Source of the DNA: Acidimicrobiales bacterium
Lineage (GTDB): Bacteria; Actinomycetota; Acidimicrobiia; Acidimicrobiales; Aldehydirespiratoraceae
Direction of reading: 5' to 3'
NCBI GenBank assembly: GCA_965116865.1
Contig: OZ220727.1
Span: 1,156,798-1,220,797, forward strand
Length of the DNA: 64,000 nucleotides
In this document: one piece after another, positions 2,602 to 63,450 of the stretch
Layout: every line of letters starts with the position of its first letter
Position numbering within the stretch: position 1 is the first letter of the stretch
The notes under the pieces: generated by a model
Told to the model about the DNA's origin: nothing
The model's input: only the letters and a program-made list of their open reading frames with translations
The model's database searches: none
Translations under genes and position numbers: made by a program

Positions 2602-2707
2602 CCGTCCGAGTATCGACGATCGGCCCGCACCCGGCAGCGACCGCTGCCCCGAACCCGGCAATGACCGCGAACACCGCCCGAGTATCGACGATCGGCCCAC
2701 GCCCGGC
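2602..2707. repeat. X-Y-X junction repeat, period 72 bp
   Basis: The segment ccg(t/c)ccgagtatcgacgatcggccc.c.cccggc occurs at 2602-2635 and 2674-2707, between tRNA-Arg and tRNA-His. Confidence 0.85.
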
Positions 2708-2753
2708 TTCCGGCGGCTGCGGTACACTGTGCATCGCCCGCTTCGGCGGTCGT

Positions 2754-2828
2754 GGTGGCCGTAGCTCAGTCGGTTAGAGCGCCGGGTTGTGGTCCCGGAG
2801 GTCGGGGGTTCGACTCCCCTCGGTCACC
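2754..2828 (+). tRNA. tRNA-His (anticodon GTG) with encoded G-1
   Basis: Acceptor GTGGCCG/CGGTCAC, with G-1 (2754) opposite C73. D-arm GCTC-AGTCGGTTA-GAGC, anticodon loop TTGTGGT, T-arm GGGGG-TTCGACT-CCCCT. Confidence 0.9.
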
Positions 2829-3026
2829 CGCCCCCTCCCCTGTGCGGAGTCGTCGGTGCCGCCGCGGTCGAAGTCGACGGGTCCCGCCGTGGTCGGGAGA
2901 TGGGCCTTGGGAAGCGTCGCGGCTGCGGCCGGGCGACGCTGCAACCATCGGCAGCGCATGGGCCGACAACACCGCACCTACCGAGCCACGCGACTGGAGT
3001 ATCCGGGCTAGCCTGGAAGCTTGCAA

Positions 3027-3100
3027 GCGCCTCTAGCTCAATCAGGCAGAGCAACGGACTCTTAATCCGCAGGTTCTGGGTTCGAGTCCCAGGGGGCGTA
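3027..3100 (+). tRNA. tRNA-Lys (anticodon CTT)
   Basis: Acceptor GCGCCTC/GGGGCGT, with G1-T72 and T6-G67 wobbles. D-arm GCTC-AATCAGGCA-GAGC, anticodon loop CTCTTAA, T-arm CTGGG-TTCGAGT-CCCAG. Confidence 0.8.
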
Positions 3101-3233
3101 CTTACGCAAATGCAGGGACCATCGCAGGCAGGGGAAGCCGTCGGCACCAGGCTAGGCTGTAAGCGCCGGTCGGGCTCCGCCCGGTGGTGCAGGTCTGGAT
3201 GGACCTCGTGCAGGCGCGAAGGGTGACGCCGAC

Positions 3234-4130
3234 ATGGACCGCTACGCGATATTCGTAGACGCCGAGTTCCTCTACCGAGAGGGCGGCGTGCTGTGCTGCA
3301 ACAGCCCGGACCGGCAAGAGATCCTCCTCTACGCCCTAGGCGCCAACGACTTCCTCGTCGGTCTCGCGACTGAGGTCTGCGATCTCCGGCCGCTTCGCAC
3401 CTATTGGTACGACACCTCGAGCGACGGGGCGCCGACCCCGGCCCAGCAGATGGTGGCGACGCTTCCCGACATGAAGCTGCGACTCCAGACCGGCGCCGGC
3501 CAGGACTCGCAATCGTCGCTGGGCGCGGCGATCCGGCGCGACCTGTCCACGCTGGCCCGCGAGCGGGCCATCTGCGACGCCTTCCTGCTGACGGACGACG
3601 AGGATCTGCTCGACTGCGTCCTCGAGGTCCAGGACCAGGGACTGCGGGTGACCCTGATCGACATCGCGTCGCATGGGGAGAGCGGGGAGGGGCCGGCCAG
3701 ACTGGCCAACGAATCGGACGAGGTCATCAAATTGACCAAGGACGATCTGTCGAGGTTCATCAGACGCCGACGCACTCCCGACGACGCTTCTGCCGACACC
3801 TACGACCCGGTCGACTCGGTCGCCGCAGCAGCGGCAGCCTTCGCCGAGAACTGGCTCTGCCAGGCCAGCGACGACGAGTTCTACGCCATGCTCGGCCATC
3901 GCCCCCGCATACCCGAATCGCTGGACGGCGACCTGCTCTACGCTGTCGAGAACGTGATCGGTGGAAGCCTGCGAGGCCAGGACCGCCTCAGGATCGCTGT
4001 GCGCCAGGCCTTCTGGAACAGGATCGAACAGGAGATCGAAGGACTGGCCCCTGAACCGGTGCGGTCTGCGGCACGGGAGGCGGGACCGCCGAACCGCACA
4101 CGGATGAATCAGTCCGCGGGACCGCGGTAG
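3234..4130 (+). CDS. NYN (LabA/DUF88-like, PIN-fold) domain protein with uncharacterised C-terminal half
   Basis: N-terminus MDRYAIFVDAEFL and the later segment AFLLTDDEDLLDCVLEVQDQGLRVTLI match the acidic-residue pattern of NYN ribonuclease-like domains. 298-aa ORF. Confidence 0.65.
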   Translation: MDRYAIFVDAEFLYREGGVLCCNSPDRQEILLYALGANDFLVGLATEVCDLRPLRTYWYDTSSDGAPTPAQQMVATLPDMKLRLQTGAGQDSQSSLGAAIRRDLSTLARERAICDAFLLTDDEDLLDCVLEVQDQGLRVTLIDIASHGESGEGPARLANESDEVIKLTKDDLSRFIRRRRTPDDASADTYDPVDSVAAAAAAFAENWLCQASDDEFYAMLGHRPRIPESLDGDLLYAVENVIGGSLRGQDRLRIAVRQAFWNRIEQEIEGLAPEPVRSAAREAGPPNRTRMNQSAGPR

Positions 4131-4163: not shown

Positions 4164-5123
4164 TCAGCCGTCGGCCGCCGGAGCAGGTGCCGGCCCGCGC
4201 CGCGCTCCGAGAGCACGCAGCAACGCCCTCCGCCCAAGTGGCGGCATCTCCGCCGCCTGACCGGGCCCGCGCCGCGCTCCGAGAGCACGCAGCAACGTCT
4301 GCACCGTGAGCACGGCCAAGAACACGACGACGGTGGCGAGGGCCATGGTGGCTCCGGCTGCGGTGTCGTAGTGATAGCTGGCCAGCAGGCCGACCACCAC
4401 GGAGCCGATCCCGACCGCGGCTGCGACGACCATGATGCGCGGCACCCGCCGCACGAGCAGCACGGCAGTGGCCGGAGGAGCGATGAGGAAGGCGAACACC
4501 AGCAGGTTCCCCACGGCCTCGAACGATGCGATGATCGAGACGGCCAGCAGCACCAGCAGCACACCGTGGGCGAGACGGGGACGGAGGCCGAGGACCTGGG
4601 CCTGGGCGTGGTCGAACGTCATGACCAGGAACGCCCGATAGAAAACGACGACCCCGCCCACCGAGAGGACCGCCGCGACAGCCTGGCGGCGGAGGTCGCC
4701 CGCGTCCACTCCGGTGACGGACCCGAACAGGAAGCGGTTCAGGTCCCCGACGTAAGCTCCCGACGAACTGGACATGATGGCCACGGCTAGGGCCAGGAAA
4801 CCGACGAACAGCACCCCGATGGACGTGTCCTCCGGCAGCGGTGAGCAGCTGCGGATCATGTTGATGCCGCACACCATGGCGATGGCCGCCACGAAGGCGC
4901 CGATGGTGGTGTCGACCCCGATGATGAACGCCAGCGCGATCCCGGGAAGCACGCCGTGGGCCAGCGCGTCCCCTAGGAAGCTCATGCCCCGCAGCACTAC
5001 CCATGTGCCCACGACCGACGTGGTGAGGACCGCGAGCAGGCCCGCATAGAGAGCCCGGCGCATGAAGATGTTGGATGTGAACGGGTCGACCCACCACGAC
5101 ATGGGGTCGGTCAGGAACTCCAC
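4164..5123 (-). CDS. znuB: metal (zinc-type) ABC transporter permease, ABC-3 family
   Basis: 319-aa polytopic ORF typical of ZnuB/MntB/TroC permeases, directly downstream of the binding-protein gene. The C-terminus is extended in frame by the 72-bp repeat (LLRALGARRGP appears twice). Confidence 0.8.
   Translation of the reverse strand: MEFLTDPMSWWVDPFTSNIFMRRALYAGLLAVLTTSVVGTWVVLRGMSFLGDALAHGVLPGIALAFIIGVDTTIGAFVAAIAMVCGINMIRSCSPLPEDTSIGVLFVGFLALAVAIMSSSSGAYVGDLNRFLFGSVTGVDAGDLRRQAVAAVLSVGGVVVFYRAFLVMTFDHAQAQVLGLRPRLAHGVLLVLLAVSIIASFEAVGNLLVFAFLIAPPATAVLLVRRVPRIMVVAAAVGIGSVVVGLLASYHYDTAAGATMALATVVVFLAVLTVQTLLRALGARRGPGQAAEMPPLGRRALLRALGARRGPAPAPAADG
4190..4297. repeat. X-Y-X junction repeat, period 72 bp, inside the 3' end of znuB
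   Basis: The segment ggcccgcgccgcgctccgagagcacgcagcaacg occurs at 4192-4225 and 4264-4297. Confidence 0.9.
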
Positions 5124-5180: not shown

Positions 5181-6332
5181 TCAGCCGAGAGCGTCGACAA
5201 TGAGGTCGGCGTTGGTACGCACGAAGTCGACGTAGGTCTCGGCGCCGCTGCCGGCGGGACCGAGGCTGCCGGTGTAGAGCGTGACCACGTCGACGTCGCC
5301 GACCCGGTCGGCCAGCGCCTCGACGTCGTCGACGGAGTGCAGGGTCTCGGCGAAGATGGCCTTGATCCCCTCGTGCTCGATGATCTCGGCCAGCTCCTCG
5401 AGCCCGGCGGGGCTGGCCTGCGCCATGCTCGCCGGCGTCGGGATGACCGTGCCGATGAGCTCGAACCCGTAGCGGTCGGCGAAGTACCCGAGCGCCTCGT
5501 GGTTGGTGACCAGCTTGCGGCTCTCGGCGGGGAGTCGCTCGACCTTGGCGGCGACCTCGGCGTCCACCGCCTCCAGCTCGGCCAGGTAGCTGTCCAGGCA
5601 GGCTTCGATCGCGGCGGAGTCGAGACCGACCTCGCTCGTCAGCACCCGGGCGAGGCTCGACAGCGCACCCGACACCCGCTGAGGATCGAACCACACGTGG
5701 GGATCGCCTCCGCTGCCGTGGCCCTCTTCCTCGTGGCCCTCTTCTTCTTCCTCGTGGCCCTCTTCTTCCTCGTGGCCCTCTTCTTCCTCGTGGCCCTCTT
5801 CTTCCTCGTGACCCTCTTCTTCCTCGTGACCCTCTTCTTCCTCGTGTCCTTCGTCTTCTCCACCCTCGCCGTGGTGGTGAGCGCCCTCGAACGAGAACGG
5901 GATGGTCTCCATCCCGTCTGCGAACTCGAACACCGGCGTGCCCGACTCTGCGACTGCTTCGAGCGTGTCTTCGAGGGCCTCCTCCAGCTCCAGGCCGTTG
6001 GCCACCACCAGCGCGGCGTTCTCCATGAGGGCCCGGTCCTGAAGGGAGGGCTCGTAGCTGTGGGGATCGCCGCCGACTGGGATGATCGTCTCGATGTCGG
6101 CCAGCCCGCCGCAGGCCACGTTCGAGACGATGTCGGCCCAGATGCCCGTGGTTACCAGGATTGCCGGAGTCTCAGCGGCAGCCTCGGGCTCGGCCTCTGA
6201 GTCAGTGCCGTCCCCGCTGCACGCTGCGGCTGTCAGGGCCATGACGGCAACAGCCGCGGACATGGCCGTCAGTATCGATGGTCGGGCGCGGGCGGCTGCA
6301 ATGGCGGTGCCGGGGCTTGCTGAACGGATCAC
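5181..6332 (-). CDS. znuA: metal ABC transporter substrate-binding lipoprotein (ZnuA/TroA family) with His/Glu-rich loop
   Basis: Cluster-9 binding-protein-like sequence with lipobox LTAAAC. Loop HHHGEGGEDEGHEEEEGHEEEEGH... The preferred start is GTG 6332, with AAGGAG (6340-6345) 7 nt upstream. The track ORF extends to TTG 6368. Confidence 0.8.
   Translation of the reverse strand: MIRSASPGTAIAAARARPSILTAMSAAVAVMALTAAACSGDGTDSEAEPEAAAETPAILVTTGIWADIVSNVACGGLADIETIIPVGGDPHSYEPSLQDRALMENAALVVANGLELEEALEDTLEAVAESGTPVFEFADGMETIPFSFEGAHHHGEGGEDEGHEEEEGHEEEEGHEEEEGHEEEEGHEEEEGHEEEEEGHEEEGHGSGGDPHVWFDPQRVSGALSSLARVLTSEVGLDSAAIEACLDSYLAELEAVDAEVAAKVERLPAESRKLVTNHEALGYFADRYGFELIGTVIPTPASMAQASPAGLEELAEIIEHEGIKAIFAETLHSVDDVEALADRVGDVDVVTLYTGSLGPAGSGAETYVDFVRTNADLIVDALG
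5717..5852. repeat. coding 18-bp repeat encoding (GHEEEE)n
   Basis: About 7-8 tandem copies of ctcttcttcctcgtggcc-like units on the plus strand. Confidence 0.85.
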
Positions 6333-9922: not shown

Positions 9923-10264
9923 CCTGGAACGGACCTCAGAGCAAACGCAGACAGGCGAGAGTCCCAGCCCCATTCGCCGGTCACGCGCACCCTGCCCGCT
10001 GGAACGGACCTCAGAGCAAACGCAGACAGGCGAGAGTCCCAGCCCCATTCGCCGGTCACGCGCACCCTGCCCGCTGGAACGGACCTCAGAGCAAACGCAG
10101 ACAGGCGAGAGTCCCAGCCCCATTCGCCGGTCACGCGCACCCTGCCCGCTGGAACGGACCTCAGAGCAAACGCAGACAGGCGAGAGTCCCAGCCCCATTC
10201 GCCGGTCACGCGCACCCTGCCCGCTGGAACGGACCTCAGAGCAAACGCAGACAGGCGAGAGTCC
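9923..10264. repeat. 75-bp tandem array, 4.5 copies
   Basis: The segment ggaacggacctcagagc starts at 9926, 10001, 10076, 10151 and 10226. The last unit runs directly into dispersed-repeat copy 2. Confidence 0.95.
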
Positions 10265-20110: not shown

Positions 20111-21209
20111 GCTCGGCCGTCCCGCGGTCGCCGGCGCCGGCTACGGTGCGGCGCTCGCCGATCTCCCACCGGATCCGATAGTTGAGGAGCACGGCCACCG
20201 CCAGCGCTGCGAGAAGGATCAACGCCTGCAGGATCACCGAGATCGACGACTCCACACCGAGCGTCTGGATCGACTGGCCGCCGACCTGCACAGCGCCGAA
20301 CACGCAGGCCACCACGGCCACGCCGGAGGGCCGCATCAGCGCGAGCGCGGCCACGATGATTCCCGCGTATCCGTAGCCGTTCGACAGGCCGGGAGACAGA
20401 CGGCTGGCCGTCCCGGTCAACTCCACCGCCCCGGCCAGTCCGGCGATGGCTCCGGACAGCAGCAGAGAGACCAAGATCTTGCGCTCCAAGGAGATCCCCG
20501 CATAGCGCGCCGTCGCCGCCGACGATCCAGCGACCCGGAGCTCGTACCCCCAGGCGGTGCGCGCCACCGCCAGCCAGAACACGATCAGCAGCCCCGCCGC
20601 CATCAGCACACCGACATGCGCCCGACCGAACAGCACCGGCAAGGACGACTGGTCGGGCAGTTCGGCGATGACCGCGAACCCGAACGAGTCGGGATCCTTC
20701 CAAGGCCCCACCTCGAGCCATTCGACGATCCGGATCGACACCTCCACCAGCATCAGGGTGGTGATGATCTCGTTCACGTTCAGGTACGCACGGGCCAGCG
20801 CCGGCCCGACGGCGAGAACCAGTCCCCCCAGCGCGCCGGCGGCGACCATCACCACGATCAGCGGCGGCCCGGCGAGGTCCTCAGCCACTAGGGCGACGGC
20901 GGTGGCCAGCGTGGCGCCGGCCATCATCTGACCCTCCGCTCCGATGTTCCAGAGCCCCATCGACCCCGCCACCGCCACCGCCAGCCCGGTCAACGCCAGC
21001 GGGGTGGCCCTCACCAGGGTGCGCGACAGCGAGTCGGTCCCGCCGAGAGAGGAGTCCAGCATCCGCTCGTACACGGTGATCGGGGAATGGCCCGAAGCCG
21101 CCAGCAGGACCGCGCCCACCACGAGGGCCGCTCCGATCCCGACCAGGAAGGCGACGCCCTGCGCAGCCGGCACCACGCGCTCGCGCCGCTGGAGCACCGG
21201 AAGGATCAT
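20103..21209 (-). CDS. ABC transporter permease (BMP/nucleoside-type system)
   Basis: Polytopic ORF. The likely start is ATG 21209 (MILPVLQRRERVV). The upstream 53 codons of the track ORF are repeat read-through. Confidence 0.8.
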   Translation of the reverse strand: MILPVLQRRERVVPAAQGVAFLVGIGAALVVGAVLLAASGHSPITVYERMLDSSLGGTDSLSRTLVRATPLALTGLAVAVAGSMGLWNIGAEGQMMAGATLATAVALVAEDLAGPPLIVVMVAAGALGGLVLAVGPALARAYLNVNEIITTLMLVEVSIRIVEWLEVGPWKDPDSFGFAVIAELPDQSSLPVLFGRAHVGVLMAAGLLIVFWLAVARTAWGYELRVAGSSAATARYAGISLERKILVSLLLSGAIAGLAGAVELTGTASRLSPGLSNGYGYAGIIVAALALMRPSGVAVVACVFGAVQVGGQSIQTLGVESSISVILQALILLAALAVAVLLNYRIRWEIGERRTVAGAGDRGTAERV

Positions 21210-21368
21210 GGCCCCACCCGCACGGCGGCCCCGCGGCCGCGGAATGGTCCCGCAACTGCCAATGGGATCATGAGACGCACCCGCACGGCGGCCCCGCGGC
21301 CGCGGAATGGTCCCGCAACTGCCAATGGGATCATGAGACGCACCCGCACGGCGGCCCCGCGGCCGCAT
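21201..21368. repeat. 63-bp tandem array (2.4 copies) between the ATPase stop and the permease start
   Basis: Units start with acccgcacgg at 21216, 21279 and 21342. Each unit ends gggatcatgagacgc, mimicking the permease start region ggaaggatcatg. Confidence 0.9.
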
Positions 21369-27566: not shown

Positions 27567-27673
27567 GTCGCCGGGGTCTTCGGCGGACTGATTCGAGTTC
27601 GTGCGCGCGGCGCGCCGAAAATCGTCCAGCCCCTCGAGTCGCCGGGGTCTTCGGCGGACTGATTCGAGTTCGT
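27567..27673. repeat. X-Y-X junction repeat, period 71 bp
   Basis: The segment gtcgccggggtcttcggcggactgattcgagttcgt occurs at 27567-27602 and 27638-27673, between the Fic start and tRNA-Pro. Confidence 0.9.
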
Positions 27674-27853: not shown

Positions 27854-29560
27854 ATGAGCCCACTTCACGAAGCCCAGCGCAGGGCCGACGCGATCAAGCG
27901 ATATCTAGCGCCCGAGTCGTTGGAAGACGCTCTGGACGTGCTCGCGACGCGCGGCCCCTCGGCACGGGCCATCGCCGGCGGCACCGACCTGCTGTTGGAA
28001 CTCAGCCGCGGCGCGCGGACCGGCATCGACACCCTCGTCGATCTGAGCGTGCTCGACGGGCTCGACACCATAACCGAGCACCGTGAGCGGGTCGAGCTGG
28101 GGCCCCTCGTCACCCACGCCGATGTCGTCGGGTACGAGAGGATGCCGTCGGTGGGACTGCCGCTCGCGCAGGCCTGCCTGGAAGTCGGAGGACCGCAGCT
28201 CCGCAACCGGGCCACGGTCGCCGGCAACATCGTCACAGCCAGTCCCGCCAACGACACTGTCTCCGCTCTGTACGCGCTCGGCGCCGACGTGACCGTCTCA
28301 TCAGCCGGAGGCGGCAACCGGACCATGCCGATCTCGGACTTCCTCACCGGTTTCCGCACCACCGCGCTGCAACCGGGCGAACTGGTGACCAGGATCGCCT
28401 TCGACGTCTTGGGAGGCCCCCGGCGGGGGATCTTCGTGAAGCTCGGGCTGAGGAGGGCGCAGGCCATCTCGGTGGTCCACGCCGCCGCGGTCGTCACCGA
28501 AGACAGCGACGGCGCCGTGGCCGACCTGGTGGTGGCTCTCGGAAGCGTCGGCCCGACCATCGAACTGGTGGACGCAGCCGTCGGCATAGCCAGGGGCCGG
28601 CGCCTCGCCGCCGCCGCCGCCGACGTAGCGGCCGCGTCACGGGCTGCGGTCACACCCATCGACGACCTGCGCGCCACAGCCGAGTACCGCAGCCGCACGG
28701 TCGAGGCAGTGGTGGAACGAGCGCTGCGCTCGCTGGCGGCCGGCACCGAGGCCGCCACCTGGCCGTATCGGCCTCCGCGCCTCGCGGCGGCCGCCCGCCC
28801 CGCAGCAGCGCCCGCGCCAGCGACCGACGGCGCCTCGCGGCGGGAGGACGCCGACGACAGCGCCGCCACCCGCGACGTGCTCACGGGCAGCGCCGTCGCC
28901 ACGGGCTCGCAGCGGGAGATCACCGACGGCAACACCATCACGGCGACCCACACCCCCGGCTGGCAGCTCCACCGGCCAGACGTTCGGGAGATCACCGACG
29001 GCAACACCATCACGGCGACGGTCAACGGCGTCGAGCGCCGCGCTGCCAACGCCGCGGGGCGCACGCTGCTCGACTGGCTGCGACTCGACCTCGGACTGAC
29101 CGGCACCAAGGAGGGCTGCGCCGAGGGCGAGTGCGGCGCCTGCACCGTCCATCTCGACGGCCGAGCCGTGCTGGCGTGTCTGGTGCCGGCCGCCCGGGCC
29201 GCCGCCGCCAGCGTCACCACGGTCGAGGGTCTGGCCTCGCCGGACGGAGCGCTGCATCCGGTCCAGCAGGCCCTGGCGGACTGCGGGGGCGTCCAGTGCG
29301 GCTTCTGCACCCCCGGGTTCGTGATGAGCGCCGCCATGCTGGCCGAGGAGGAGCCCCACCCGAGCCGGGCACAGGTGGAGCACGGTCTGGCCGGGAACCT
29401 GTGCCGCTGCACGGGGTACTACTCGATCATCAACTCCCTCACCGACAGCGACGCGTCCCCCGCCGCCGACACCACACCGCGAACCGGCAGCCACAAGCCC
29501 TCGAACGGGACTCCCCCGCCGCCGACTCCCACCGACGCGTCCGGAGCGGCCGGGCTGTGA
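27854..29560 (+). CDS. fused FAD-binding (CoxM/XdhB-like) and [2Fe-2S] (CoxS/XdhC-small-like) subunit of a molybdenum hydroxylase
   Basis: The N-terminal half has AIAGGTDLLLEL and other FAD-binding features. The C-terminal part has GCAEGECGACTV, QCGFCTPG and NLCRCTGY. An Ala/Pro-rich linker contains a 72-bp duplication. Confidence 0.85.
   Translation: MSPLHEAQRRADAIKRYLAPESLEDALDVLATRGPSARAIAGGTDLLLELSRGARTGIDTLVDLSVLDGLDTITEHRERVELGPLVTHADVVGYERMPSVGLPLAQACLEVGGPQLRNRATVAGNIVTASPANDTVSALYALGADVTVSSAGGGNRTMPISDFLTGFRTTALQPGELVTRIAFDVLGGPRRGIFVKLGLRRAQAISVVHAAAVVTEDSDGAVADLVVALGSVGPTIELVDAAVGIARGRRLAAAAADVAAASRAAVTPIDDLRATAEYRSRTVEAVVERALRSLAAGTEAATWPYRPPRLAAAARPAAAPAPATDGASRREDADDSAATRDVLTGSAVATGSQREITDGNTITATHTPGWQLHRPDVREITDGNTITATVNGVERRAANAAGRTLLDWLRLDLGLTGTKEGCAEGECGACTVHLDGRAVLACLVPAARAAAASVTTVEGLASPDGALHPVQQALADCGGVQCGFCTPGFVMSAAMLAEEEPHPSRAQVEHGLAGNLCRCTGYYSIINSLTDSDASPAADTTPRTGSHKPSNGTPPPPTPTDASGAAGL
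28914..29019. repeat. X-Y-X repeat, period 72 bp, in frame inside the CoxM-CoxS linker
   Basis: The segment gggagatcaccgacggcaacaccatcacggcgac occurs at 28914-28947 and 28986-29019. The protein reads REITDGNTITAT twice. Confidence 0.9.
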
Positions 29561-34188: not shown

Positions 34189-34595
34189 CCCCCACAGCCC
34201 CCATCCTCACGCATTTCTCGATACTCCTCCACGCGAAAACTCCCACCAACCACACGATCCCGCGGATCCAGCGCCGCCGTCGCCGTGACGCTCACGGCCC
34301 GCCACCGCCGCCGCAGCCGACACCTGCGCAGCCGACAGCGCCGCCATCGCCGACCTCGACACCACCAACATCTCACGCAACTCCGAACACGACGCCGCGC
34401 CCGCGCCCACCAGCTCCAGCATCTCGGAGGCAGCGGCCTCGGCCCGACGAGCGGCTTCGATCAACATGCACACAGCATCCCACAGGGGTATGACATCCAC
34501 CCCCCACAGCCCCCATCCTCACGCATTTCTCGATACTCCTCCACGCGGAACTCCCACCAACCACGCGATCCCGCGGATCTAGCGCCGCCGTCGGT
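33957..34595. repeat. 311/312-bp tandem duplication covering the 5' end and upstream region of the HNH gene
   Basis: The segment cagcgccgccgtcgccgtgacgctcacgg starts at 33957 and 34269, with a third partial start at 34580. By eye the copies are about 97% identical. Confidence 0.9.
34207..34500 (-). pseudogene. duplicated N-terminal fragment of the DUF222/HNH gene
   Basis: MDVIPLWDAVCMLIEAARRAEAAASEMLELVGAGAASCSELREMLVVSRSAMAALSAAQVSAAAAVAGRERHGDGG is nearly identical to residues 1-76 of the 32155..34188 product. It then diverges and stops. Confidence 0.8.
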
Positions 34596-34662
34596 TGTCG
34601 TGGTCATCTTCGACGACCTCGTCGAGGCCATCCATGCGGTTCCGCGGATCTAGCGCCGCCGC
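34571..34662. repeat. X-Y-X junction repeat, period 71 bp
   Basis: The segment ccgcggatctagcgccgccg occurs at 34571 and 34642. Confidence 0.75.
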
Positions 34663-35742: not shown

Positions 35743-35850
35743 GCGCGCCGCGCGGCGCTCCGCGGTCAAGGCCCGCACCCGAATCGCTGCTGCCTGCCTC
35801 GCTCACGGCTCACGCGCGCCGCGCGGCGCTCCGCGGTCAAGGCCCGCACC
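35743..35850. repeat. X-Y-X repeat, period 71 bp, disrupting the IS110 transposase frame
   Basis: The segment gcgcgccgcgcggcgctccgcggtcaaggcccgcacc occurs at 35743-35779 and 35814-35850. Confidence 0.9.
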
Positions 35851-36218
35851 GCCGCCGTCAACCAGATCAAAGCGCTGTTGGTGACCGCCCCCGAGCAGAT
35901 CGCCGCCCCGCTGCGGGGCCTTCGCACCGCCGCTTTGGTCGGTGCCTGTGCTCGACTGCGGCCCGATACCGCCGGCGGCGAGGCTGCCGGCGCGGCGAAG
36001 AGGACCATGCGCGGCCTGGCGCGACGGCACCGGGCGCTCAGCGGCGAGATAGACGAGCTCGACGCTGAGATCGCCCGCCTGTGCATGCAGGCGAATCCCG
36101 CTTTGATGGCCGCGCCCGGCGTCGGCGCGCAGACTGCCGCCGCGCTGCTCGTCGCCGCTGGCGACAACCCGCGGCGCCTGCACAGCGAGGCGTCCCTCGC
36201 GGCGCTCTGCGGAGCCGG

Positions 36219-36306
36219 CCCCATCGAGGCGTCCTCGGGGCGCACAATGGCTGTCCTCGTGGGCCGCGACAGCCAGTCGCCCCATCGAGGCGTCCTCGGG
36301 GCGCAC
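36219..36306. repeat. X-Y-X repeat, period 61 bp, disrupting the IS110 transposase frame
   Basis: The segment ccccatcgaggcgtcctcggggcgcac occurs at 36219-36245 and 36280-36306. Confidence 0.9.
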
Positions 36307-36765: not shown

Positions 36766-37026
36766 TACCGGCCGAGGCTAGTCAGGGGACCTCCGTCGAC
36801 AGCGTCGTGGTGTTCCCATACGGTGCCGAGTTCGAGGCACCGGCCGAAGCTGGTCAGAGGACCTCCGTCGACAGCGTCGTGGTGTTCCCATACGGTGCCG
36901 AGTTCGAGGCACCGGCCGAAGCTGGTCAGAGGACCTCCGTCGACAGCGTCGTGGTGTTCCCATACGGTGCCGAGTTCGAGGCACCGGCCGAAGCTGGTCA
37001 GGGGACCTCCGTCGACAGCGTCGTGC
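36766..37026. repeat. 72-bp tandem array (3.6 copies)
   Basis: The segment gacctccgtcgacagcgtcgtg starts at 36788, 36860, 36932 and 37004. Confidence 0.95.
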
Positions 37027-38392: not shown

Positions 38393-38467
38393 GTGCGGCC
38401 CCCTTGTTCTCTCCGGCACGGAACCGATCTGGGCATCGTCGCGCACCGACCGGATCCGTCTCTTCTA

Positions 38468-38819
38468 GCCGCGGCCGACGCACAACTGGGCGATCCCCCG
38501 CCGACCCAGCGTCGAGGCACCGACCACCCTCGGAATCCTCCTCAAGCCGCGGCCGACACACAACTGGGCGATCCCCCGCCGACCCAGCGTCGAGGCACCG
38601 ACCACCCTCGGAATCCTCCTCAAGCCGCGGCCGACACACAACTGGGCGATCCCCCGCCGACCCAGCGTCGAGGCACCGACCACCCTCGGAATCCTCCTCA
38701 AGCCGCGGCCGACACACAACTGGGCGATCCCCCGCCGACCCAGCGTCGAGGCACCGACCACCCTCGGAATCCTCCTCAAGCCGCGGCCGACACACAACTG
38801 GGCGATCCCCCGCCGACCC
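38468..38819. repeat. 78-bp tandem array (4.5 copies) in a divergent intergenic region
   Basis: The segment gccgcggccgac starts at 38468, 38546, 38624, 38702 and 38780. Confidence 0.95.
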
Positions 38820-39741: not shown

Positions 39742-40400
39742 GCCGCGGCGGCGAACTGCACCGCCAGAGGCTCGACACCGGAGCCTGCGACGTCGGCGAG
39801 CCGTCCGGGACCGACTATGCGGCCTTGACAACGCACCGCCAGAGGCTCACACCGGAGCCTGCGACGTCATCTGACAGCGTCGACGAGCAGCACCTCAGGA
39901 GTTCCCTCGCCGTCTGGCTCGTGCGCGTCCGCGACGGCGCCGACCCCGACCCGGTCGCCGCCACACGCTTCGCGGACGTGTCCGCCGACCATCCCCACGC
40001 CGCGTTCATAGAACGCTTCGCTCAACTCGAAGTCACCGAAGGCTGCCGCGACGGCACCCGCTACTGCCCCGACGACACCGTCACCCGTGCCCAGATGGCG
40101 AGCTTCCTGCACCGTGCCCGGACCCTGAAACTCCTCGAGCTCGACGACGCGCCCGCGCTGGAGGTGCTCCGAGCCGACCCGCACCTGGTGGGCACCTACC
40201 CGCCGCCGGTGGTCATAATGGCAGCGCCTCCCCGCGGTGTTCGACGCCGTGAGACGGGCCGTGGACGACGACCGCTCCCCGGGGCGGTTCCTCATCACCG
40301 GCTCAACCTCGCCCAAGCGGCCTCCGACCACCACTCTTCACGGCTGAGCCGATGCACGGCTTCGGCCACGACATCGAGCATGGTCGTGCCCCGCTGCTGA
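39738..40400 (+). pseudogene. composite remnant: SLH-like domain fragment followed by a fragment of a DUF4143-type AAA ATPase
   Basis: FADVSADHPHAAFIERFAQLEVTEGCRDGTRYCPDDTVTRAQMASFLHRA is SLH-like. In another frame at about 40240-40350, AVFDAVRRAVDDDRSPGRFLITGSTSP parallels residues of the 41708..43000 ATPase (GRPGQFILTGSAVP). Confidence 0.35.
39759..39868. repeat. X-Y-X repeat, period about 75 bp
   Basis: The segment caccgccagaggctcgacaccggagcctgcgacgtc occurs at 39759. The second copy at 39834 has a 1-nt deletion. Confidence 0.85.
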
Positions 40401-44004: not shown

Positions 44005-44550
44005 GGAAGACCCCCGCGTGGGCGGCGCCTCAGACGGTCCACCTCCTCGCAGACCCGGCGCTTGGGGAAGACCCCCGCGTGGGCGGCGCCTCACCCCCGG
44101 ATCCGTCGCAGCGCCTCTGTCGCGTTCATCGGCAAAGCGGTCCGCACCCGCGTGGGCGGCCCTTCACCCCCGGATCCGTCGCAGCGCCTCTGTCGCGTTC
44201 ATCGGCAAAGCGGTCCGCACCCGCGTGGGCGGCCCTTCACCCCCGGATCCGTCGCAGCGCCTCTGTCGCGTTCATCGGCAAAGCGGTCCGCACCCGCGTG
44301 GGCGGCCCTTCACCCCCGGATCCGTCGCAGCGCCTCTGTCGCGTTCATCGGCAAAGCGGTCCGCACCCGCGTGGGCGGCCCTTCACCCCCGGATCCGTCG
44401 CAGCGCCTCTGTCGCGTTCATCGGCAAAGCGGTCCGCACCCGCGTGGGCGGCGCCTCACTCCCGGATCCGTCGCAGCGCCTCTGTCGCGTTCATCGGCAA
44501 AGCGGTCCGTACCCGCGTGGGCGGCCCTTCACCCCCGGATCCGTCGCAGC
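44005..44550. repeat. tandem array, 8 X copies (first interval 61, then 75, then 72 bp x5), seeded on the HIT gene stop
   Basis: The segment acccccgcgtgggcgg / acccgcgtgggcgg starts at 44010, 44071, 44146, 44218, 44290, 44362, 44434 and 44506. The unit contains ccttcacccccggatccgtcgcagc, which is the last 6 codons plus the TGA of the HIT gene. Confidence 0.95.
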
Positions 44551-45134: not shown

Positions 45135-45135
45135 G

Positions 45136-47188: not shown

Positions 47189-47464
47189 GAGCCGCTCCAA
47201 GGGGGCCGAGCCGCCCCAAGGAGGTCTCGTGCGGACGACTCCCTGCAGCCGCCGACGCCGGAGCCTCACCGTGCGCATCGCCCGCAACCGGAGAGGTCTC
47301 GTGCGGACGACTCCCTGCAGCCGCCGACGCCGAGATCTGGCAGCGGCGGCGCTGGTGCCCCAAGGAGGTCCCGTGCGGACGACTCCCTGCAGCCGCCGAC
47401 GCCGAGAGCTGGCAGCGGCGGCGCTGGTGCCCCAAGGAGGTCTCGTGCGGACGACTCCCTGCAG
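47189..47464. repeat. repeat-spacer-like array, period 72 bp (X 40 bp, Y 32 bp), in the thrS/fabI divergent region
   Basis: X (gaggtctcgtgcggacgactccctgcagccgccgacgccg) occurs at 47221, 47293 and 47365, with a partial copy at 47437. Y1 at 47261-47292 differs from Y2 and Y3 (47333, 47405), which differ from each other by 1 nt. Confidence 0.9.
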
Positions 47465-48595: not shown

Positions 48596-49654
48596 TCACG
48601 GGCCGCTGTCGTCGGTCTCGTCGAAGATGTCGCCCACCAGGCCCTCGAGGATGTCCTCCAGGGTGACCACGCCCAGCATGCGCCCGGTGTCGCTTCGCAC
48701 CAGAGCCATGTGAACTCGCGACCGCCGCATGTCGAGCAGGAGGTCGCGACCGGCCATATCAGGGCCCACCACCCGCATGCGGCGCACCAACTCCAACGGC
48801 AGCGGATCGTCGCAGGCCTCCTCCGGCATGCGGATCAGGTCCTTGGCGTGGACGAACCCCAGCACGTCGTCGGGTTCCGACCCCCACATCGGGATCCGGG
48901 TGTGTCCGGTGGCGGCCACCACATCCTCGAGTCGGGCCGCGGACGCCCCCCGGGGCACGGACACCAGCCGGTCGGCGGGCACCATCACCGATCCGACCGA
49001 CTGGGCACGGAACTCCAGCGCGCCCGACAGCAACTCGTGCTCGGTGGGCTCGATCACGCCCTCCTCGCGGGCGCCCGCGAGCAGCGTCCGGAACTCGTTG
49101 ATGGTGAGCGCGGTGTTGATCTCGTCCACCGGATTGATGCCCATCAGGCGCACGATGCGGTTCCCCACGAAGTTGAGGGACGCGATGACCGGTCTGAACA
49201 CTGCACCGTAGATGCGCATGGCCGGCGCCAGCAGCCGTGCCGACGCCTCCGGCTCGGCAATGGCCATGTTCTTGGGGACCATCTCGCCCACCACCACATG
49301 CAGCGTCGTCACCACGAACAGCGCCACCGCGAAGGAGATCGTGTGCAGGACGCCGGACGGAACCTCCACGACCCTCTCGATGACCGGCTCGATGAGGTGG
49401 GCGATGGCCGGCTCGGCCACATAGCCCAGCACCAGCGAGGCCATGGTGATGCCGAACTGGGCTCCAGCGAGCTGGGTCTGCAGGTCGCGCACCGCTGCCA
49501 GGGCGATGCCGCTGCGCCTGTCGCCGTCGGACGCGGCCGCCTCCAAGCGAACAGCACGGGCCGCGACCAGCGCGAACTCGGCCGCCACGAAAAAGGCGTT
49601 GGCCCCGAGCATCACCACCGCCACAACCAAGGCTACGACCGTCGCCGTGCTCAC
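48596..49654 (-). CDS. CNNM/CorC/TlyC family protein (DUF21 + CBS pair)
   Basis: GTG 49654 gives VSTATVVALVVAVVMLGANAFFVAAEFALV (DUF21), followed by CBS-pair-like regions. The track ORF start at 49849 lies inside the repeat. Confidence 0.8.
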   Translation of the reverse strand: MSTATVVALVVAVVMLGANAFFVAAEFALVAARAVRLEAAASDGDRRSGIALAAVRDLQTQLAGAQFGITMASLVLGYVAEPAIAHLIEPVIERVVEVPSGVLHTISFAVALFVVTTLHVVVGEMVPKNMAIAEPEASARLLAPAMRIYGAVFRPVIASLNFVGNRIVRLMGINPVDEINTALTINEFRTLLAGAREEGVIEPTEHELLSGALEFRAQSVGSVMVPADRLVSVPRGASAARLEDVVAATGHTRIPMWGSEPDDVLGFVHAKDLIRMPEEACDDPLPLELVRRMRVVGPDMAGRDLLLDMRRSRVHMALVRSDTGRMLGVVTLEDILEGLVGDIFDETDDSGP

Positions 49655-49876
49655 CGCGACACCCCCGAACCGACCAAGCACCGACCCCGCCGAAAAAAAC
49701 AGCCCACAACCGTCGCCGCGCTCACCGCGACACCCCCGAACCGACCAAGCACCGACCCCGCCGAAAAAACAGCCCACGACCGTCGCCGTGCTCACCGCGA
49801 CACCCCCGAACCGACCAAGCACCGACCCCGCCGAAAAAACAGCCCGCAACCGTCGCCGTGCTCACCGCGACACCCC
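49636..49876. repeat. 70/71-bp tandem array (3.4 copies) seeded on a GTGA stop/start junction
   Basis: The segment g(t/c)gctcaccgcgacaccccc occurs at 49647, 49718, 49788 and 49858. The A7 tract at 49693-49699 contrasts with A6 tracts in the other units. Confidence 0.95.
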
Positions 49877-51235
49877 CGGTGCTGCCGGGCCGCACCCGTC
49901 CCTTCGCCCCAGCGCGGGCGCGGCTACGGATACGACAGGCGCCGCCACCCGGACAGCGGCGATCCTCAAACGGTCGACAGCCACCACCTCGAGGCGCCAG
50001 CCGTCCACGGTGACGACCTCGCCGGGCACCGGTATGTGGCCCAGCCTGTCCAGCACCAGCCCGGCCAGCGTCTCGTAGCCGCCTTCGGGCATGGCGAAGC
50101 CGGTAGCGTCGAACACCTCGTCGGTGTGCAGCGACGCGGACAGCACCGTCGAGCCCCGGGACTCGGACCGGGTGCGCTCAGGGGTGGACGAGTCGTGCTC
50201 GTCGTCGATCTCACCGACGATCTCCTCAAGCACGTCCTCGAGGGTGATGATCCCCGCCGTGCCGCCGTGCTCGTCGACCACCACGGCCAGCAGACCCGCG
50301 CCGGCGCGCAGGTCGTGCAGGATGTCGTTGAGATCGCGGGACTCGGGCACGGCAAGCACCGGCTGCATCAACTGCGACACCGGCGTGGAATGCCGTTGCG
50401 GCCCGGGCACGGCGAACAGCGATTTCACATGGACCACGCCGGCCACGTTGTCGAGATGGCCCGCCGTGACCGGAAACCGGGAATGGCCGGTGCCGACGGC
50501 CAGTTCGGCGAGGTAAGCCACCGAGGCGTCGGCCTCGATGGCGACCACCTCCACCCTGGGCACCATGGCGTCGTCGGCCTGCTTGTCGGCCAGGCGGATC
50601 GACCGGGTGAGCAGCCACACCTCGTCCTCGTCGAGCATCCCCCCCTGCCCCGATGAAACGAAGAGGTGTTCGAGTTCGTCGCGATCAGGCACCGTGTCTA
50701 TCTCCTCGCGCGGCTCCATGCCGAGTCGGCGCACCATCCAGTTGGCCGCGCCGTTGAGGAAAGCCACCACAGGCCGGGCCAGCACGCCGTACACGGTGGT
50801 CGGAACGGCCACCGCCACCGCTGTCCCGAAGGGCTTCGTGGTGGCCACCGCCTTGGGGACGAGCTCGCCCATCATCATCTGCACGATCGTGGCCAGCATC
50901 AGCGCGACCGCGACGGACACGCCCGAGGGCGTGTTGCCCCCGAACAGCGCCTCGACTCCGGGCGCAATCATCGGCGCCAGGGCCGGTTCGACCATGAAGC
51001 CGAGAAGCAACGACGAGACCGTGATGCCGATCTGCGCGCCCGACAGGTGAAACGACAGCCGGGCCACCAAGCGCTGGACCATCCGGGCCCGGCGGTCTCC
51101 GGCCCCTGCCCGTTCGTCCACTCGGGTGCGGTCCACCGCCACCAGCGCGAACTCCATGGCGACGAAGAAGGCGTTGGCTGCCATCAGCGCGAGAGCGGCC
51201 AAGAGCCACAGCGCGGTCTCTATCGGTCCTCCCAA
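49862..51235 (-). CDS. CNNM/CorC/TlyC family protein (DUF21 + CBS pair + CorC_HlyC)
   Basis: N-terminus LLAALALMAANAFFVAMEFALVAVDR, then CBS-like segments and the C-terminal transporter-associated domain. 457 aa. Confidence 0.85.
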   Translation of the reverse strand: MGGPIETALWLLAALALMAANAFFVAMEFALVAVDRTRVDERAGAGDRRARMVQRLVARLSFHLSGAQIGITVSSLLLGFMVEPALAPMIAPGVEALFGGNTPSGVSVAVALMLATIVQMMMGELVPKAVATTKPFGTAVAVAVPTTVYGVLARPVVAFLNGAANWMVRRLGMEPREEIDTVPDRDELEHLFVSSGQGGMLDEDEVWLLTRSIRLADKQADDAMVPRVEVVAIEADASVAYLAELAVGTGHSRFPVTAGHLDNVAGVVHVKSLFAVPGPQRHSTPVSQLMQPVLAVPESRDLNDILHDLRAGAGLLAVVVDEHGGTAGIITLEDVLEEIVGEIDDEHDSSTPERTRSESRGSTVLSASLHTDEVFDATGFAMPEGGYETLAGLVLDRLGHIPVPGEVVTVDGWRLEVVAVDRLRIAAVRVAAPVVSVAAPALGRRDGCGPAAPGVSR

Positions 51236-51339: not shown

Positions 51340-51650
51340 GGCCCCACCGATACGGCTCGTGGTGGCATTCCTGCTGGTGGGCGGCGAGACCGTCGAGCTG
51401 CAGCTCGGACCGCTGTTCACCCAGATCGGGGTTGACGACGGCATCACGGCCCGCGACACGCGCCGCCGCCGCGGTGACCATCGCCCATCGCCTCACCACC
51501 GCCCGGCGGGCGGATCGCATCGCGGTGGTCGATGCTGGTCGTATCGTCGAGATCGGGACCCACCGCGAGCTGGTGGATCTGGGCGGGCGCTATGCGACGA
51601 TGTGCGAGATGTGGGAGAGCCACGACGAAAAGATCCCCGTCCGCGCAGAG
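51340..51650 (+). pseudogene. decayed 3' remnant of an ABC exporter-type ATPase
   Basis: VTIAHRLTTARRADRIAVVDAGRIVEIGTHRELVDLGGRYATMCEMW is the typical C-terminal end of MsbA/CydCD-type ATPases. Weaker signature and Walker B-like traces (LVGGETVELQLGPLF..IGVDDGIT) lie in a different frame upstream. Confidence 0.55.
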
Positions 51651-51772
51651 CCTCGACCGCGACGGTGCGACCCGGTGACCGCGCCGGACGCACAGGGGCC
51701 GCCCGGGGCTGCCGTGCCGGTGCCCGGAGGCCGAGCGGATGCACGACAATCTCACGAGAGCCCCGAGAGACC

Positions 51773-53147: not shown

Positions 53148-53325
53148 GTCGTTCCGGAGGACCGCGACCTGACGGCACCGCACCCCCGGGCTCCGGAACC
53201 TCACCGGCATGTTCCTCGCAGACCGTGACCTGACGGCACCGCACCCCCGGGCTCCGGACAAGCCCGCAGCCTCATGAGGCAAGTCGTTCTGGAGGACCGC
53301 GACCTGACAGCGCCGCGCCGGTGCC
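53148..53325. repeat. three-copy X-Y repeat (intervals 61 and 74 bp) between convergent genes
   Basis: The segment gaccg(c/t)gacctgac(g/a)gc(a/g)ccgc occurs around 53161, 53222 and 53296. Confidence 0.75.
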
Positions 53326-55380: not shown

Positions 55381-55492
55381 GCCCGCGCAACAGAGACAAC
55401 GCCTGTGGTTGTCGCACCTTGAAGATCTCGTCGGCGGTCATGCGCCGCACGGAGCCCGCGCAACATAGACAACGCCTGTGGTTGTCGCACCT
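55381..55492. repeat. X-Y-X junction repeat, period 73 bp, seeded on the stop of the 55491..56912 gene
   Basis: The segment gcccgcgcaaca(g/t)agacaacgcctgtggttgtcgcacct occurs at 55381-55419 and 55454-55492. Each X carries the hairpin gacaac-gcctgtg-gttgtc. Confidence 0.9.
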
Positions 55493-57103: not shown

Positions 57104-57194
57104 GTCCGGTCAGACCGCGTCGGGGGCGATGGTCCGACCGCATCGCCGTTGCCGCCGCCGGCGCCGTCCGGTCAGACCGCGTCGGGGGCGATGG
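57104..57194. repeat. X-Y-X junction repeat, period 62 bp, seeded on the amidase stop
   Basis: The segment gtccggtcagaccgcgtcgggggcgatgg occurs at 57104-57132 and 57166-57194. The second copy contains the amidase TGA (57172-57174). Confidence 0.9.
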
Positions 57195-60677: not shown

Positions 60678-60708
60678 GCCGCGAGTGTTGCACGCCCAGC
60701 CACGGCTG

Positions 60709-60885
60709 GCAGAACAAAGCACGCGCGCGCACGCCATGCACGACCGGTGCGCGTGTTTGGACCGAACACGCGCACCGGTGGCAGAACAAAGCGCGCGCAC
60801 GCCATGCACGACCCCGGTGGCCCGGCCCCGGTGGACGGCCCGCAGCCGCGCAGAACAAAGCACGCGCGCGCACGCCATGCACGAC
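60709..60885. repeat. repeat-spacer-like array (X 36/32/36 bp, two unrelated Y of 36 and 37 bp) in the murF/ddl divergent region
   Basis: X (gcagaacaaagc(ac)gcgcgc(gc)acgccatgcacgac) occurs at 60709, 60781 and 60850. Y1 (60745-60780) is a perfect 14-bp-stem hairpin. Y2 (60813-60849) is unrelated to Y1. Confidence 0.9.
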
Positions 60886-60935
60886 GCTGCCATTTCGGCG
60901 CCGGCGCTAGCGTCGTCGGCGTGGAGGACCGCAGG

Positions 60936-62048: not shown

Positions 62049-62139
62049 CAGGCCGATCGGCGCGCCGTGCATGGCGAGCGGCCCGTGATGCCGGTGGATT
62101 CAGGCTCCATCAGAAGTCGGCCGCGCTCGGCAGCAGGCT

Positions 62140-62403
62140 TCATCGAGACCTGCAGACGTCGCGGCGATGGCCGACGCGGATCACATGGATCACCAGGCGC
62201 TCGCCGATGACCTCATACAAGATCCGATAGTCGCCGACGCTCACCCGATACACGGACTCCTCACCCGCGAGAGCGACACAGTTCGGAGGCCTCGGCTCGT
62301 CAGCCAGCAGGTCTATCGCGGCTCGAACACGGCGCTGTTCGTGACGGGGCGCGGTTGGAGTTGGTGTTACCGCGTTCATTCGTCGCAGCATCGCCGGGGT
62401 CAC
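62140..62403 (-). CDS. relE: RelE/ParE-family toxin, N-terminally atypical and without a cognate antitoxin gene
   Basis: C-terminal YRVSVGDYRILYEVIGERLVIHVIRVGHRRDV is the canonical RelE/ParE core. The N-terminal strand and helix are replaced by repeat-derived sequence. Confidence 0.6.
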   Translation of the reverse strand: MTPAMLRRMNAVTPTPTAPRHEQRRVRAAIDLLADEPRPPNCVALAGEESVYRVSVGDYRILYEVIGERLVIHVIRVGHRRDVCRSR

Positions 62404-62459
62404 GGCCTCGACGTCCAGTCAATAGTTGGAGTTGGTGCTACCGCGTTCATTCGTCACAG
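62354..62459. repeat. X-Y-X junction repeat, period 71 bp, at the relE 5' end
   Basis: The segment gttggagttggtg(t/c)taccgcgttcattcgtc(g/a)cag occurs at 62354-62388 and 62425-62459. X contains an ATGA stop/start junction on the minus strand. Confidence 0.9.
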
Positions 62460-62520
62460 TGTCTTGAGACCGGCTGAACTGGAGAGATTTCGTATGATGT
62501 TCCACCCTCGCCGAGGCCGC

Positions 62521-63279
62521 TCACCCAGCCTGACCCTCAGCCGCTCCGGGTTGGATGTCGAGGAGGGGGCCGAGCTCCCGGAGGCGGGCGCGTCGTATGC
62601 GGTAGTCGGGCACGGCCTGGGCGACCACAGCCCAGTATTCGGGCGTGTGGCCGCGGACGCGCAGGTGTGCGAGCTCGTGGGCGATCACGTAGTCGAGGAG
62701 GGCGGGCGGGGCCATGACGGCACGCCAGTTGAAGCGCAGCGTGCCGTCCGGGGCGCAGCTCGCCCAGCGGCGGCGCTGACCGCGGACGAGGACCGCTTTC
62801 GGCTGCGCGCCGAGGAGGCTCGCGATGCGCTCCACGCGCGGCGGGAGCTTCAGCGCGGCGCGGTCGCGGTACCACGCCTCGAATGCGGCCCGCACCTTCT
62901 CGAGCCGTTCCTCGCCTCGCAGAAAGCGGGGGACGCCGACGTCGAACTCCCAGTGGTGGAACCCGACCTCGACCCTGGCGCCGTCGATGGGATGCACGGT
63001 GAGGCGCACCGACCGGCCGAGATAGGGCAGGGACTCGCCGCTGACGAACCGGCGGGGCGGTGCGCACGCCGTGGCCGCGCCGTCGTGCCGGACGATCCAG
63101 CCGGCACGGCGACGCACAGTCTCCTCGACTTGCTCCGCAGGCGTGTCGACAGGCGCCGCCACCCTGACGACACCGGGCGCATCGACGGTGACCTCGATCG
63201 TCTTGCGCCGTCTCGGGCTGCGGACGACCTGGTACTCGATCCGGGCTTCGCCGAAGACGACCTCCCCGCGCTCTGTCAC
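62521..63279 (-). CDS. DUF45/YgjP-like (M48-type) zinc metallopeptidase
   Basis: The HELAHL zinc motif lies within LDYVIAHELAHLRVRGH. The real start is GTG 63279 (VTERGEVVFGEARIEYQVVRS). This gene type is a common companion of type I R-M systems. Confidence 0.8.
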   Translation of the reverse strand: MTERGEVVFGEARIEYQVVRSPRRRKTIEVTVDAPGVVRVAAPVDTPAEQVEETVRRRAGWIVRHDGAATACAPPRRFVSGESLPYLGRSVRLTVHPIDGARVEVGFHHWEFDVGVPRFLRGEERLEKVRAAFEAWYRDRAALKLPPRVERIASLLGAQPKAVLVRGQRRRWASCAPDGTLRFNWRAVMAPPALLDYVIAHELAHLRVRGHTPEYWAVVAQAVPDYRIRRARLRELGPLLDIQPGAAEGQAG

Positions 63280-63450
63280 ACGAGCCTCTTGCGGGCCATC
63301 TCCATGACCTTCGAGCACCGCGACGACGACGCCGTACAGGCCCGCGTCACACGAGCCTCTTGCGGGCCATCTCCATGACCTTCGAGCACCGCGACGACGA
63401 CGCCGTACAGGCCCGCGTCACACGAGCCTCTTGCGGGCCATCTCCATGAC
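63275..63450. repeat. 71-bp tandem array (X-Y-X-Y-X) seeded on the hsdR stop / DUF45 start GTGA junction
   Basis: X (gtcacacgagcctcttgcgggccatctccatgac) occurs at 63275, 63346 and 63417. Y (cttcgagcaccgcgacgacgacgccgtacaggcccgc) occurs twice. Confidence 0.95.

Follow-up and report, generated by a model that had tools for sequence, protein, structure and literature searches.

Why should one stretch of a bacterial chromosome carry at least 21 short tandem arrays that have no sequence in common, keep to a few unit lengths, and end about halfway through a unit? The stretch – referred to here as the window – comprises 64,000 nucleotides (positions 1,156,798-1,220,797 of contig OZ220727.1, assembly GCA_965116865.1) from an Acidimicrobiales bacterium, a sponge symbiont represented by a metagenome-assembled genome (MAG) of one 3.32-Mb contig with 68.5% G+C. 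The original prediction, made from the window sequence, described arrays of the form X-Y-X, in which two copies of a segment X flank a segment Y, with clustered periods. It offered two explanations: a family of variable-number tandem repeats (VNTRs) resembling mycobacterial interspersed repetitive units (MIRUs), or ectopic integration by Cas1-Cas2 of a CRISPR system, in which 36 + 36 gives a period of 72 and 28 + 33 a period of 61. The period, phase, cas gene, donor and empty-site analyses all agree with the second, and we conclude that the arrays are very probably off-target (non-canonical) Cas1-Cas2 spacer integrations, later amplified by slippage.

All 21 predicted loci were recovered using Tandem Repeats Finder (TRF), a direct-repeat search and a self-shift scan, and the clustering of periods extends far beyond the window. 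Scanning the whole 3.32-Mb genome for direct repeats at every shift from 20 to 160 yields 469 at a shift of 72, 182 at 73, 119 at 74, 92 at 71 and 90 at 61, against a background of about five per other shift not divisible by three. With the canonical CRISPR array left out there are 628 loci with periods of 70-76 and 153 with periods of 59-64, and these ~780 loci cover ~140 kb, or ~4% of the genome. We refer to the main class, with a period of ~72, as class A, and to the second, with a period of ~61, as class B. At simple class A loci the length of X peaks at 36-37 nt and that of Y at 36 nt; at simple class B loci the peaks are at 28 nt and 33 nt, respectively.

The units share no sequence between loci, as had been proposed from the window, and a BLAST comparison of all 781 with one another leaves 622 as singletons. 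The predicted ending near half a unit is equally general: among 259 multi-unit arrays, 173 have a fractional copy number of 0.4-0.6 (chi-square test of a uniform phase, p = 2.8e-82). Arrays of identical units reach ~18 copies and still end in X, and the X copies within a locus differ by 1-2% on average, with 54-73% identical. There are also 69 chains of the form X-Y1-X-Y2-X in which one X is associated with two or more different Y segments (a few of these are coding repeats); at genome position 3308530, six 28-nt X copies alternate with five different 33-nt Y segments. The two window arrays in which differing Y segments had been noted, at 47221 and 60701, are of this kind. Loci are rarer deep within open reading frames (ORFs) than random points are (22% versus 61%), a depletion that is only qualitative because gene context was taken from a crude ORF caller, based on G+C at third codon positions (GC3) and covering 67% of the genome. 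The arrays overlap gene starts and stops, extending or blurring ORF calls, and this matters for annotation.

Comparison of the Y segments with the genome locates distant donor sites. Near-identical matches elsewhere in the chromosome are found for 76 of 289 simple class A loci and 46 of 81 simple class B loci. When whole-locus duplicates and matches inside other ectopic loci are left out, donors matching Y only are present for 77 simple loci (45 of class A and 32 of class B), 49 of them 100% identical, and the commonest match lengths are 35-38 nt (class A) and 33 nt (class B). Class A donors have TT within positions -4 to -1 in 19 of 45 cases, against a 12% background (p = 2.5e-7), and class B donors have A|G – the G being the first base of the insert – in 12 of 32, against 9% (p = 1.9e-5); neither of these motifs, which resemble protospacer-adjacent motifs (PAMs), is enriched in the opposite class. 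A type I-U/I-G Cas4/1-Cas2 is reported to take up 36-bp spacers, with TTN upstream of about half of the unique naive ones (Almendros et al. 2019, PMC6547450). An exact search of three window Y segments against viral contigs gave no match, and coupling between the PAM end and repeat polarity in class B gave no result, with 6 of 32 loci orientable and a palindromic type I-E motif.

At empty sites X is present once and Y is missing. For 38 loci, located in DNA that the genome carries in several copies, the remaining copies read flank-X-flank without a gap; for example, the copy at genome position 221124 is filled, and those at 213256 and at least 11 further positions are empty. An empty allele is also evident for the locus at window position 36218, where metagenome contigs join 36217 to 36279, leaving out 61 nt, and a stretch of 28 nt fits either side. 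Other species are at most 90% identical and were compared at the level of gene junctions rather than base by base, and at that level they agree. The six congeners compared at the array at 49638 have a gene junction of 3-13 bp or overlapping genes there, with X resembling the native gene start and Y absent from all six. Viewed together, the arrays at 48342 (discussed below) and 49638 correspond to junctions of a few bases in six congeners, X aligning to a native gene end and Y missing. The donor and empty sites exclude plain tandem duplication.

The original prediction was right that the window contains no cas gene, and its proposed search of the genome for cas1, cas2 and a matching repeat length succeeded. 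The genome encodes cas1 and cas2, and a CRISPR-Cas locus lies ~150 kb to the right of the window. It types as I-G, with a Cas4g/Cas1g fusion, Cas2, Cas3g, a Cas3-extension protein, Csb2 and Csb1, and the fusion contains the only Cas1 homologue detectable in the genome. The adjoining canonical array has 146 copies of a 36-nt repeat with spacers of 35-39 nt (66 of 36 nt, 32 of 37 nt and 29 of 38 nt). The X peak of 36-37 nt thus corresponds to the resident repeat, and the Y peak of 36 nt to the resident spacers. The period spectra are also alike: the numbers at 71, 72, 73, 74 and 75 are 10, 66, 32, 29 and 6 for the canonical array and 67, 289, 129, 72 and 48 for the ectopic loci, and period 72 accounts for 45-46% in both.

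None of 145 canonical spacers has a full-length match in its own genome, as expected if self-derived spacers are lethal in a working array and harmless at ectopic sites. This absence suggests, from the sequence, that type I-G interference may be functional. A Csx17/Cas8g profile has no match in this genome, and no large subunit of Csx17/Cas8g type was seen in the I-G operon (L003:8094-12300, genome 1376993-1381200). Upstream of cas7 are two small ORFs without a known family and one member of a multicopy family; this last was considered as a Cas8 candidate and rejected on account of that membership.

The canonical array is perfect apart from three degenerate repeats about 9-11 repeats from the leader (C1:1368272-1368454), which fit the consensus over their last 24 nt only. 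The cas locus itself bears ectopic insertions, one X-Y-X locus (X of 36 nt, period 73) at C1:1369570-1369678 at the 5' end of cas2 – the cas1-cas2 junction – and another at 1379127, ~1 kb upstream of cas7. Three ectopic-type loci in the congener G010 lie within 5 kb of its array. Together with the sites in the cas locus, these raise the possibility that nearness to the source of the integrase may matter.

The sequences at the ends of X connect each class with a CRISPR subtype. AGCN|G is present at the ends of 36-nt X segments in 11 of 69 cases on the left and 14 of 69 on the right (16-20%), against a background of 0.8%. The leader-repeat junction of the resident array is GAGCG|GTCAGG, and among 52 related I-G loci this junction has A in 41, G in 44, C in 36 and G in 41, followed across the junction by G in 47. 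The resemblance of class A targets to canonical ones is confined to this junction motif: the interior of X matches the I-G repeat at 13.0 positions versus 12.8, which is not significant (p = 0.056). Class B segments behave differently, in that X matches the type I-E repeat of congeners in register at 12.6 of 28 positions versus 10.5 (p = 2e-14), the common positions being G1, C8 C9, C11 G12 C13 and G18 C19 G20 G21. The congeners' I-E arrays, which have a 28-nt repeat and a period of 61-62, also have the geometry of class B (X 28, Y 33); type I-E cas1 was found in two of the 24 congeners in a search of relatives.

From what was observed – the geometry, the donor and empty sites, the motifs at targets and PAM positions, and a resident I-G system – we infer an enzyme, a route of amplification and a set of selective filters, in a scheme that would run as follows. 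For class A, the resident I-G Cas4/Cas1-Cas2 would capture a prespacer of ~36-38 nt, often from its own chromosome and with partial selection for a TTN PAM. Two strand-transfer attacks on opposite strands, 36-37 bp apart, would then fall on ordinary DNA instead of the leader-proximal repeat, at ends that both resemble the leader-repeat junction (AGCN|G), and gap repair would duplicate the 36-37 bp between the attacks to give X-Y-X. Class B would be the product of a type I-E integrase, with a 28-bp duplication, a 33-nt insert and targets like the I-E repeat palindrome. An X-Y-X locus is amplifiable by slippage because it is already a direct repeat of 1.5 units, and slipped-strand events or unequal recombination could extend it to X(YX)n, with up to ~18 copies and the half-unit end preserved. 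Some sites would acquire additional, differing spacers and turn into neo-CRISPR mini-arrays. Selection would remove insertions that disrupt genes, leaving survivors between genes and at gene ends. At ectopic sites self-derived spacers would persist, whereas autoimmunity would probably eliminate them from a real array.

Within the window, TRF reports arrays with periods of 70-78 starting at 9924, 36767, 38460, 44074, 47215, 49638 and 63275, and one period-63 array starting at 21203. It cannot score the shorter loci of 1.5 units, and these were found by the direct-repeat search and the self-shift scan. The 21 loci are as follows, in window coordinates and without strand.

2595..2707: X-Y-X locus, period 72, with X of ~41 nt in two copies 88% alike (direct-repeat search, self-shift scan); given that identity, it looks like an older event.
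4192..4297: X-Y-X locus, period 72, X 34 and Y 38 (self-shift scan).
9924..10264: amplified array, period 75, 4.55 copies, units 100% identical, terminal partial X of 41 nt (TRF, direct repeats, self-shift scan).
21203..21366: period-63 array, 2.6 copies, X 26 and Y 37, of uncertain class (TRF, direct repeats, self-shift scan).
27567..27673: X-Y-X locus, period 71, X 36 and Y 35, the textbook I-G geometry (self-shift scan).
28913..29019: X-Y-X locus, period 72, X 35 and Y 37 (self-shift scan).
34571..34661: weak member, period 71, X of merely 20 nt, inside DNA that is multicopy in the genome (self-shift scan).
35743..35850: X-Y-X locus, period 71, X 37 and Y 34, Y being 100% identical to genome positions 2174157 and 805584 (self-shift scan, genome comparison).
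36218..36306: class B (I-E-like) X-Y-X locus, period 61, X 28 and Y 33 (self-shift scan, metagenome contigs).
36767..37025: amplified array, period 72, 3.6 copies (TRF, direct repeats, self-shift scan).
38460..38819: amplified array, period 78, 4.6 copies, X 41 and Y 37 (TRF, direct repeats, self-shift scan).
39775..39868: weak member, period 74, X of 20 nt (self-shift scan).
44074..44550: amplified array, period 73, 6.5 copies, X 39 and Y 34 (TRF, direct repeats, self-shift scan).
47221..47464: mini-array, period 72, a 40-nt X four times, with Y1 and then Y2 twice (TRF, direct repeats, self-shift scan).
49638..49878: amplified array, period 70/71, 3.4 copies (TRF, congener gene junctions).
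53160..53258: period-61 locus with an atypical split, X 38 and Y 23 (self-shift scan).
55381..55492: X-Y-X locus, period 73, X 39 and Y 34, Y matching a genome multicopy element at 30 of 34 nt (direct repeats, self-shift scan, genome comparison).
57104..57194: class B X-Y-X locus, period 62, X 29 and Y 33, Y matching the single donor site at genome position 2100384 over 32 of 33 nt (self-shift scan, genome comparison).
60701..60886: three diverged X copies at spacings of 68-73, with two different Y segments (direct repeats, chain search, self-shift scan).
62354..62455: X-Y-X locus, period 71, X 31 and Y 40 (self-shift scan).
63275..63450: amplified array, period 71, 2.5 copies, units 100% identical, X 34 and Y 37 (TRF, direct repeats, self-shift scan).

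The periods proposed at the outset stand overall, except that the long array at 44074-44550 has a period of 73 and not 72. An X of about 25-45 bp likewise holds for most loci; the exceptions are those at 34571 and 39775, with only 20 nt. The locus at 53160 has an atypical X38/Y23 split. The arrays at 38460 (period 78) and 9924 (period 75) fall in the tail of the period distribution.

Several other repeats in the window were set apart from the class. A 45-bp repeat at 14904 was rejected as an ordinary integer duplication, and a 98-bp repeat at 48342 was rejected for its integer copy number (2.0-2.1) and different length. The latter unit lies between two genes (48342-48545), at a site that holds only 16-20 nt in other strains and species (joints 48348 to 48598 and 48348 to 48602). 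The junction homologous to window 49650-49940 bears different insertions of their own in the congeners G005 (L027 region), G043 and G008, that of G043 being a 21-bp unit in triplicate followed by ~80 nt; small insertions seem to arise there repeatedly in different species. A nested complex repeat of 21/54/57/90/201/291 nt at 32754-33416, built on GCCGCTGTCGTTGTTGCGGGA, and a twofold 312-bp repeat at 33957-34593 have several near-copies genome-wide (for example around 3119316, 3165903 and 2175476) and are probably members of a repetitive gene family or multicopy element. Two in-frame coding repeats, at 24092-24320 (15 nt, 15.5 copies) and 5725-5858 (18 nt, 7.3 copies), are ordinary peptide repeats and unrelated. 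Each of the four sponge runs shows a 10- to 40-fold increase in metagenome contig depth over 40004-40670 and 51343-52009, which suggests sequence common to many community members, either conserved or mobile.

How unusual is this genome? Samples of 100-400 kb from each of 14 congeners contain ~0-3 ectopic-type loci per 100 kb in seven (G018, G005, G006, G008, G011, G023 and G043), 2-3 in G003, G046, G044 and G010 – those of G010 within ~5 kb of its own array – and roughly 5-8 in G013 and G024, among the listed matches inspected; in G017 the matches at periods of 70-76 are its own canonical array. In the same comparison, the genome described here has about 60. A scan of the cas-flank loci L031-L110 for ectopic sites was discarded, being confounded by canonical arrays.

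Several observations weigh against integration by the resident I-G enzyme and an I-E counterpart. In the samples, G046, G006 and G005 have few or no loci and a Cas4/Cas1 that is 89-96% identical, so that the integrase alone does not explain an excess of ~10-fold or greater; nor did comparison with 30 relatives find a substitution specific to this genome at conserved Cas4/Cas1 columns. The terminal X of amplified arrays is often 39-45 nt rather than 36-37 nt, the PAM enrichment is partial (~40% of donors), and an in-genome donor was found for only 16-40% of Y segments. Neither type I-E cas genes – I-E modules were found only in congeners – nor a second Cas1 is present in this single-contig assembly, and class B therefore needs either an integrase that has been lost or one on an unbinned replicon. 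The class B X copies look no older than those of class A, which fits recent loss or an unbinned replicon of the I-E module without amounting to proof. We accordingly hold the attribution of the 61-bp class to a lost or unbinned I-E module less firmly than the integration model itself.

These difficulties give some room to the same integration chemistry performed by a different, unrecognised integrase – a solo Cas1, a casposase-like protein, or a phage or plasmid enzyme – instead of the resident I-G system and a lost I-E module. The missing I-E cas1 and the near-identical I-G integrases of congeners with few loci speak for it. We nonetheless find it improbable: the genome has a single detectable Cas1 homologue, the target motif is the conserved I-G leader-repeat junction, the 28-nt targets follow the I-E repeat in register, and insert lengths are spacer lengths. 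Casposases, moreover, make duplications of ~14-15 bp and have terminal inverted repeats. An error of assembly is a natural suspicion, and one raised from the start, in a MAG rich in tandem repeats, which are a classic source of such errors. It is scarcely credible here, where an independent 2015 sponge metagenome carries the region, with 87% of the words of window 44000-50000 and contigs whose breaks coincide exactly with the arrays. The loci are missing from congeners that the same project assembled, and an artefact would not produce ~780 of them with two exact geometries, donors and PAM-like motifs.

A MIRU-like family, or one resembling repetitive extragenic palindromic (REP) elements, would be a mobile or selfish short element spreading to operon junctions with variable copy number. 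It would account for loci that are mostly intergenic or at gene boundaries and that are in many cases tandemly amplified, up to 18 copies, as mycobacterial MIRUs are. It is very unlikely in view of the absence of any unit consensus and of a Y that is inserted DNA from arbitrary chromosomal sites beside a native X, with lengths alone conserved, and that half of the original prediction does not survive. Similarly remote is the idea that these are tandem duplications made by replication slippage, or by non-homologous end joining (NHEJ), with their length set by nucleoid-protein wrapping (six or seven turns, ~63 or ~73 bp). The periods of 61-63 and 72-74 do lie near six and seven turns of B-DNA, and constant-size, variable-sequence repeats of unexplained origin have been described in Firmicutes (PMC8161180). 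Such processes would give integer copies and a native Y, whereas the basic form here is 1.5 units, empty sites hold X without Y, Y donors are distant and have PAM-like flanks, and each length class fits a CRISPR subtype in both of its parts and not just in their sum.

Off-target integration by Cas1-Cas2 has a laboratory precedent. Neo-CRISPR loci arose as rare events in E. coli over-producing type I-E Cas1-Cas2 and supplied with oligonucleotides (Nivala, Shipman & Church 2018, Nat Microbiol 3:310, as described in bioRxiv 10.1101/148544, PMC7054753 and PMC6698737), and in vitro off-target sites have repeat features in common (PMC6698737). Papers citing that work describe the natural evidence for neo-CRISPR formation as circumstantial and from two species. 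On those descriptions, both cases involve a spacer-sized insert within a repeat-length duplication at a non-CRISPR site, targets that resemble the repeat or leader junction, and sites that can be reused to form small new arrays. They differ in that the events here are natural, with ~780 fixed loci in ~4% of a genome rather than rare products of over-production in the laboratory, and in that most are attributable to a type I-G Cas4/Cas1 fusion, many inserts are self-derived, and many loci are amplified to minisatellite-like arrays. Canonical I-G (I-U) adaptation likewise uses 36-bp spacers, a TTN PAM and duplication of a 36-nt repeat (PMC6547450); here, however, integration is not at the leader-proximal repeat, and the duplicated DNA is arbitrary, with the junction motif alone in common. 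Nor do the loci look like functional CRISPR arrays, since X differs at each locus, most loci have one Y or identical Y segments, and X has no similarity to the I-G repeat.

The arrays are also comparable to known tandem repeats. MIRU-VNTR loci are likewise units of 40-100 bp at gene junctions with variable copy number, but MIRUs are a sequence family, whereas what these loci have in common is their lengths alone, a donor supplying half of each unit. The Firmicutes repeats, of 52 and 20-21 nt and detected at four or more copies (Subirana & Messeguer, PMC8161180), are similar in occupying many loci in one genome with the same length, different sequences and an unexplained origin; their sizes differ from the ~72 and ~61 here, and a link with CRISPR geometry is seen only in the present case. 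Among the papers searched, we found no report of a natural genome with hundreds of such events, nor of a type I-G system producing them. As far as we have found, the natural scale, the I-G subtype, the self-derived inserts and the growth to minisatellite-like arrays are new, and the kind of event is known.

What would this mean for the organism and its relatives? We lean towards the view that, in this lineage, a natural module for CRISPR adaptation has behaved as an insertional mutator of the whole genome, placing spacers in ordinary DNA by the hundred, self-derived ones among them, and that what is a side reaction of over-expression in the laboratory has here visibly shaped a wild genome (~780 loci, ~140 kb). 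The loci constitute a data set on the I-G integrase, which on this account samples self DNA with partial TTN selection and attacks AGCN|G ends 36-37 bp apart. They show a route to new CRISPR-like arrays and locus-specific minisatellites, and offer a testable explanation for tandem repeats that have a common length and different sequences. The excess over the congeners would, if this view is right, point to an unknown fidelity factor or to a regulatory failure, and the contrast makes the search for either one concrete. If the account holds, new CRISPR arrays in bacteria, and minisatellites of constant period and variable sequence, would have in such integration a general source that has gone unrecognised. 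Ectopic spacers probably evade removal by autoimmunity, so the loci would moreover preserve naive adaptation as an unfiltered fossil record, one that could reveal how donors are chosen, how PAMs are used and what rules the integrase follows at its targets.

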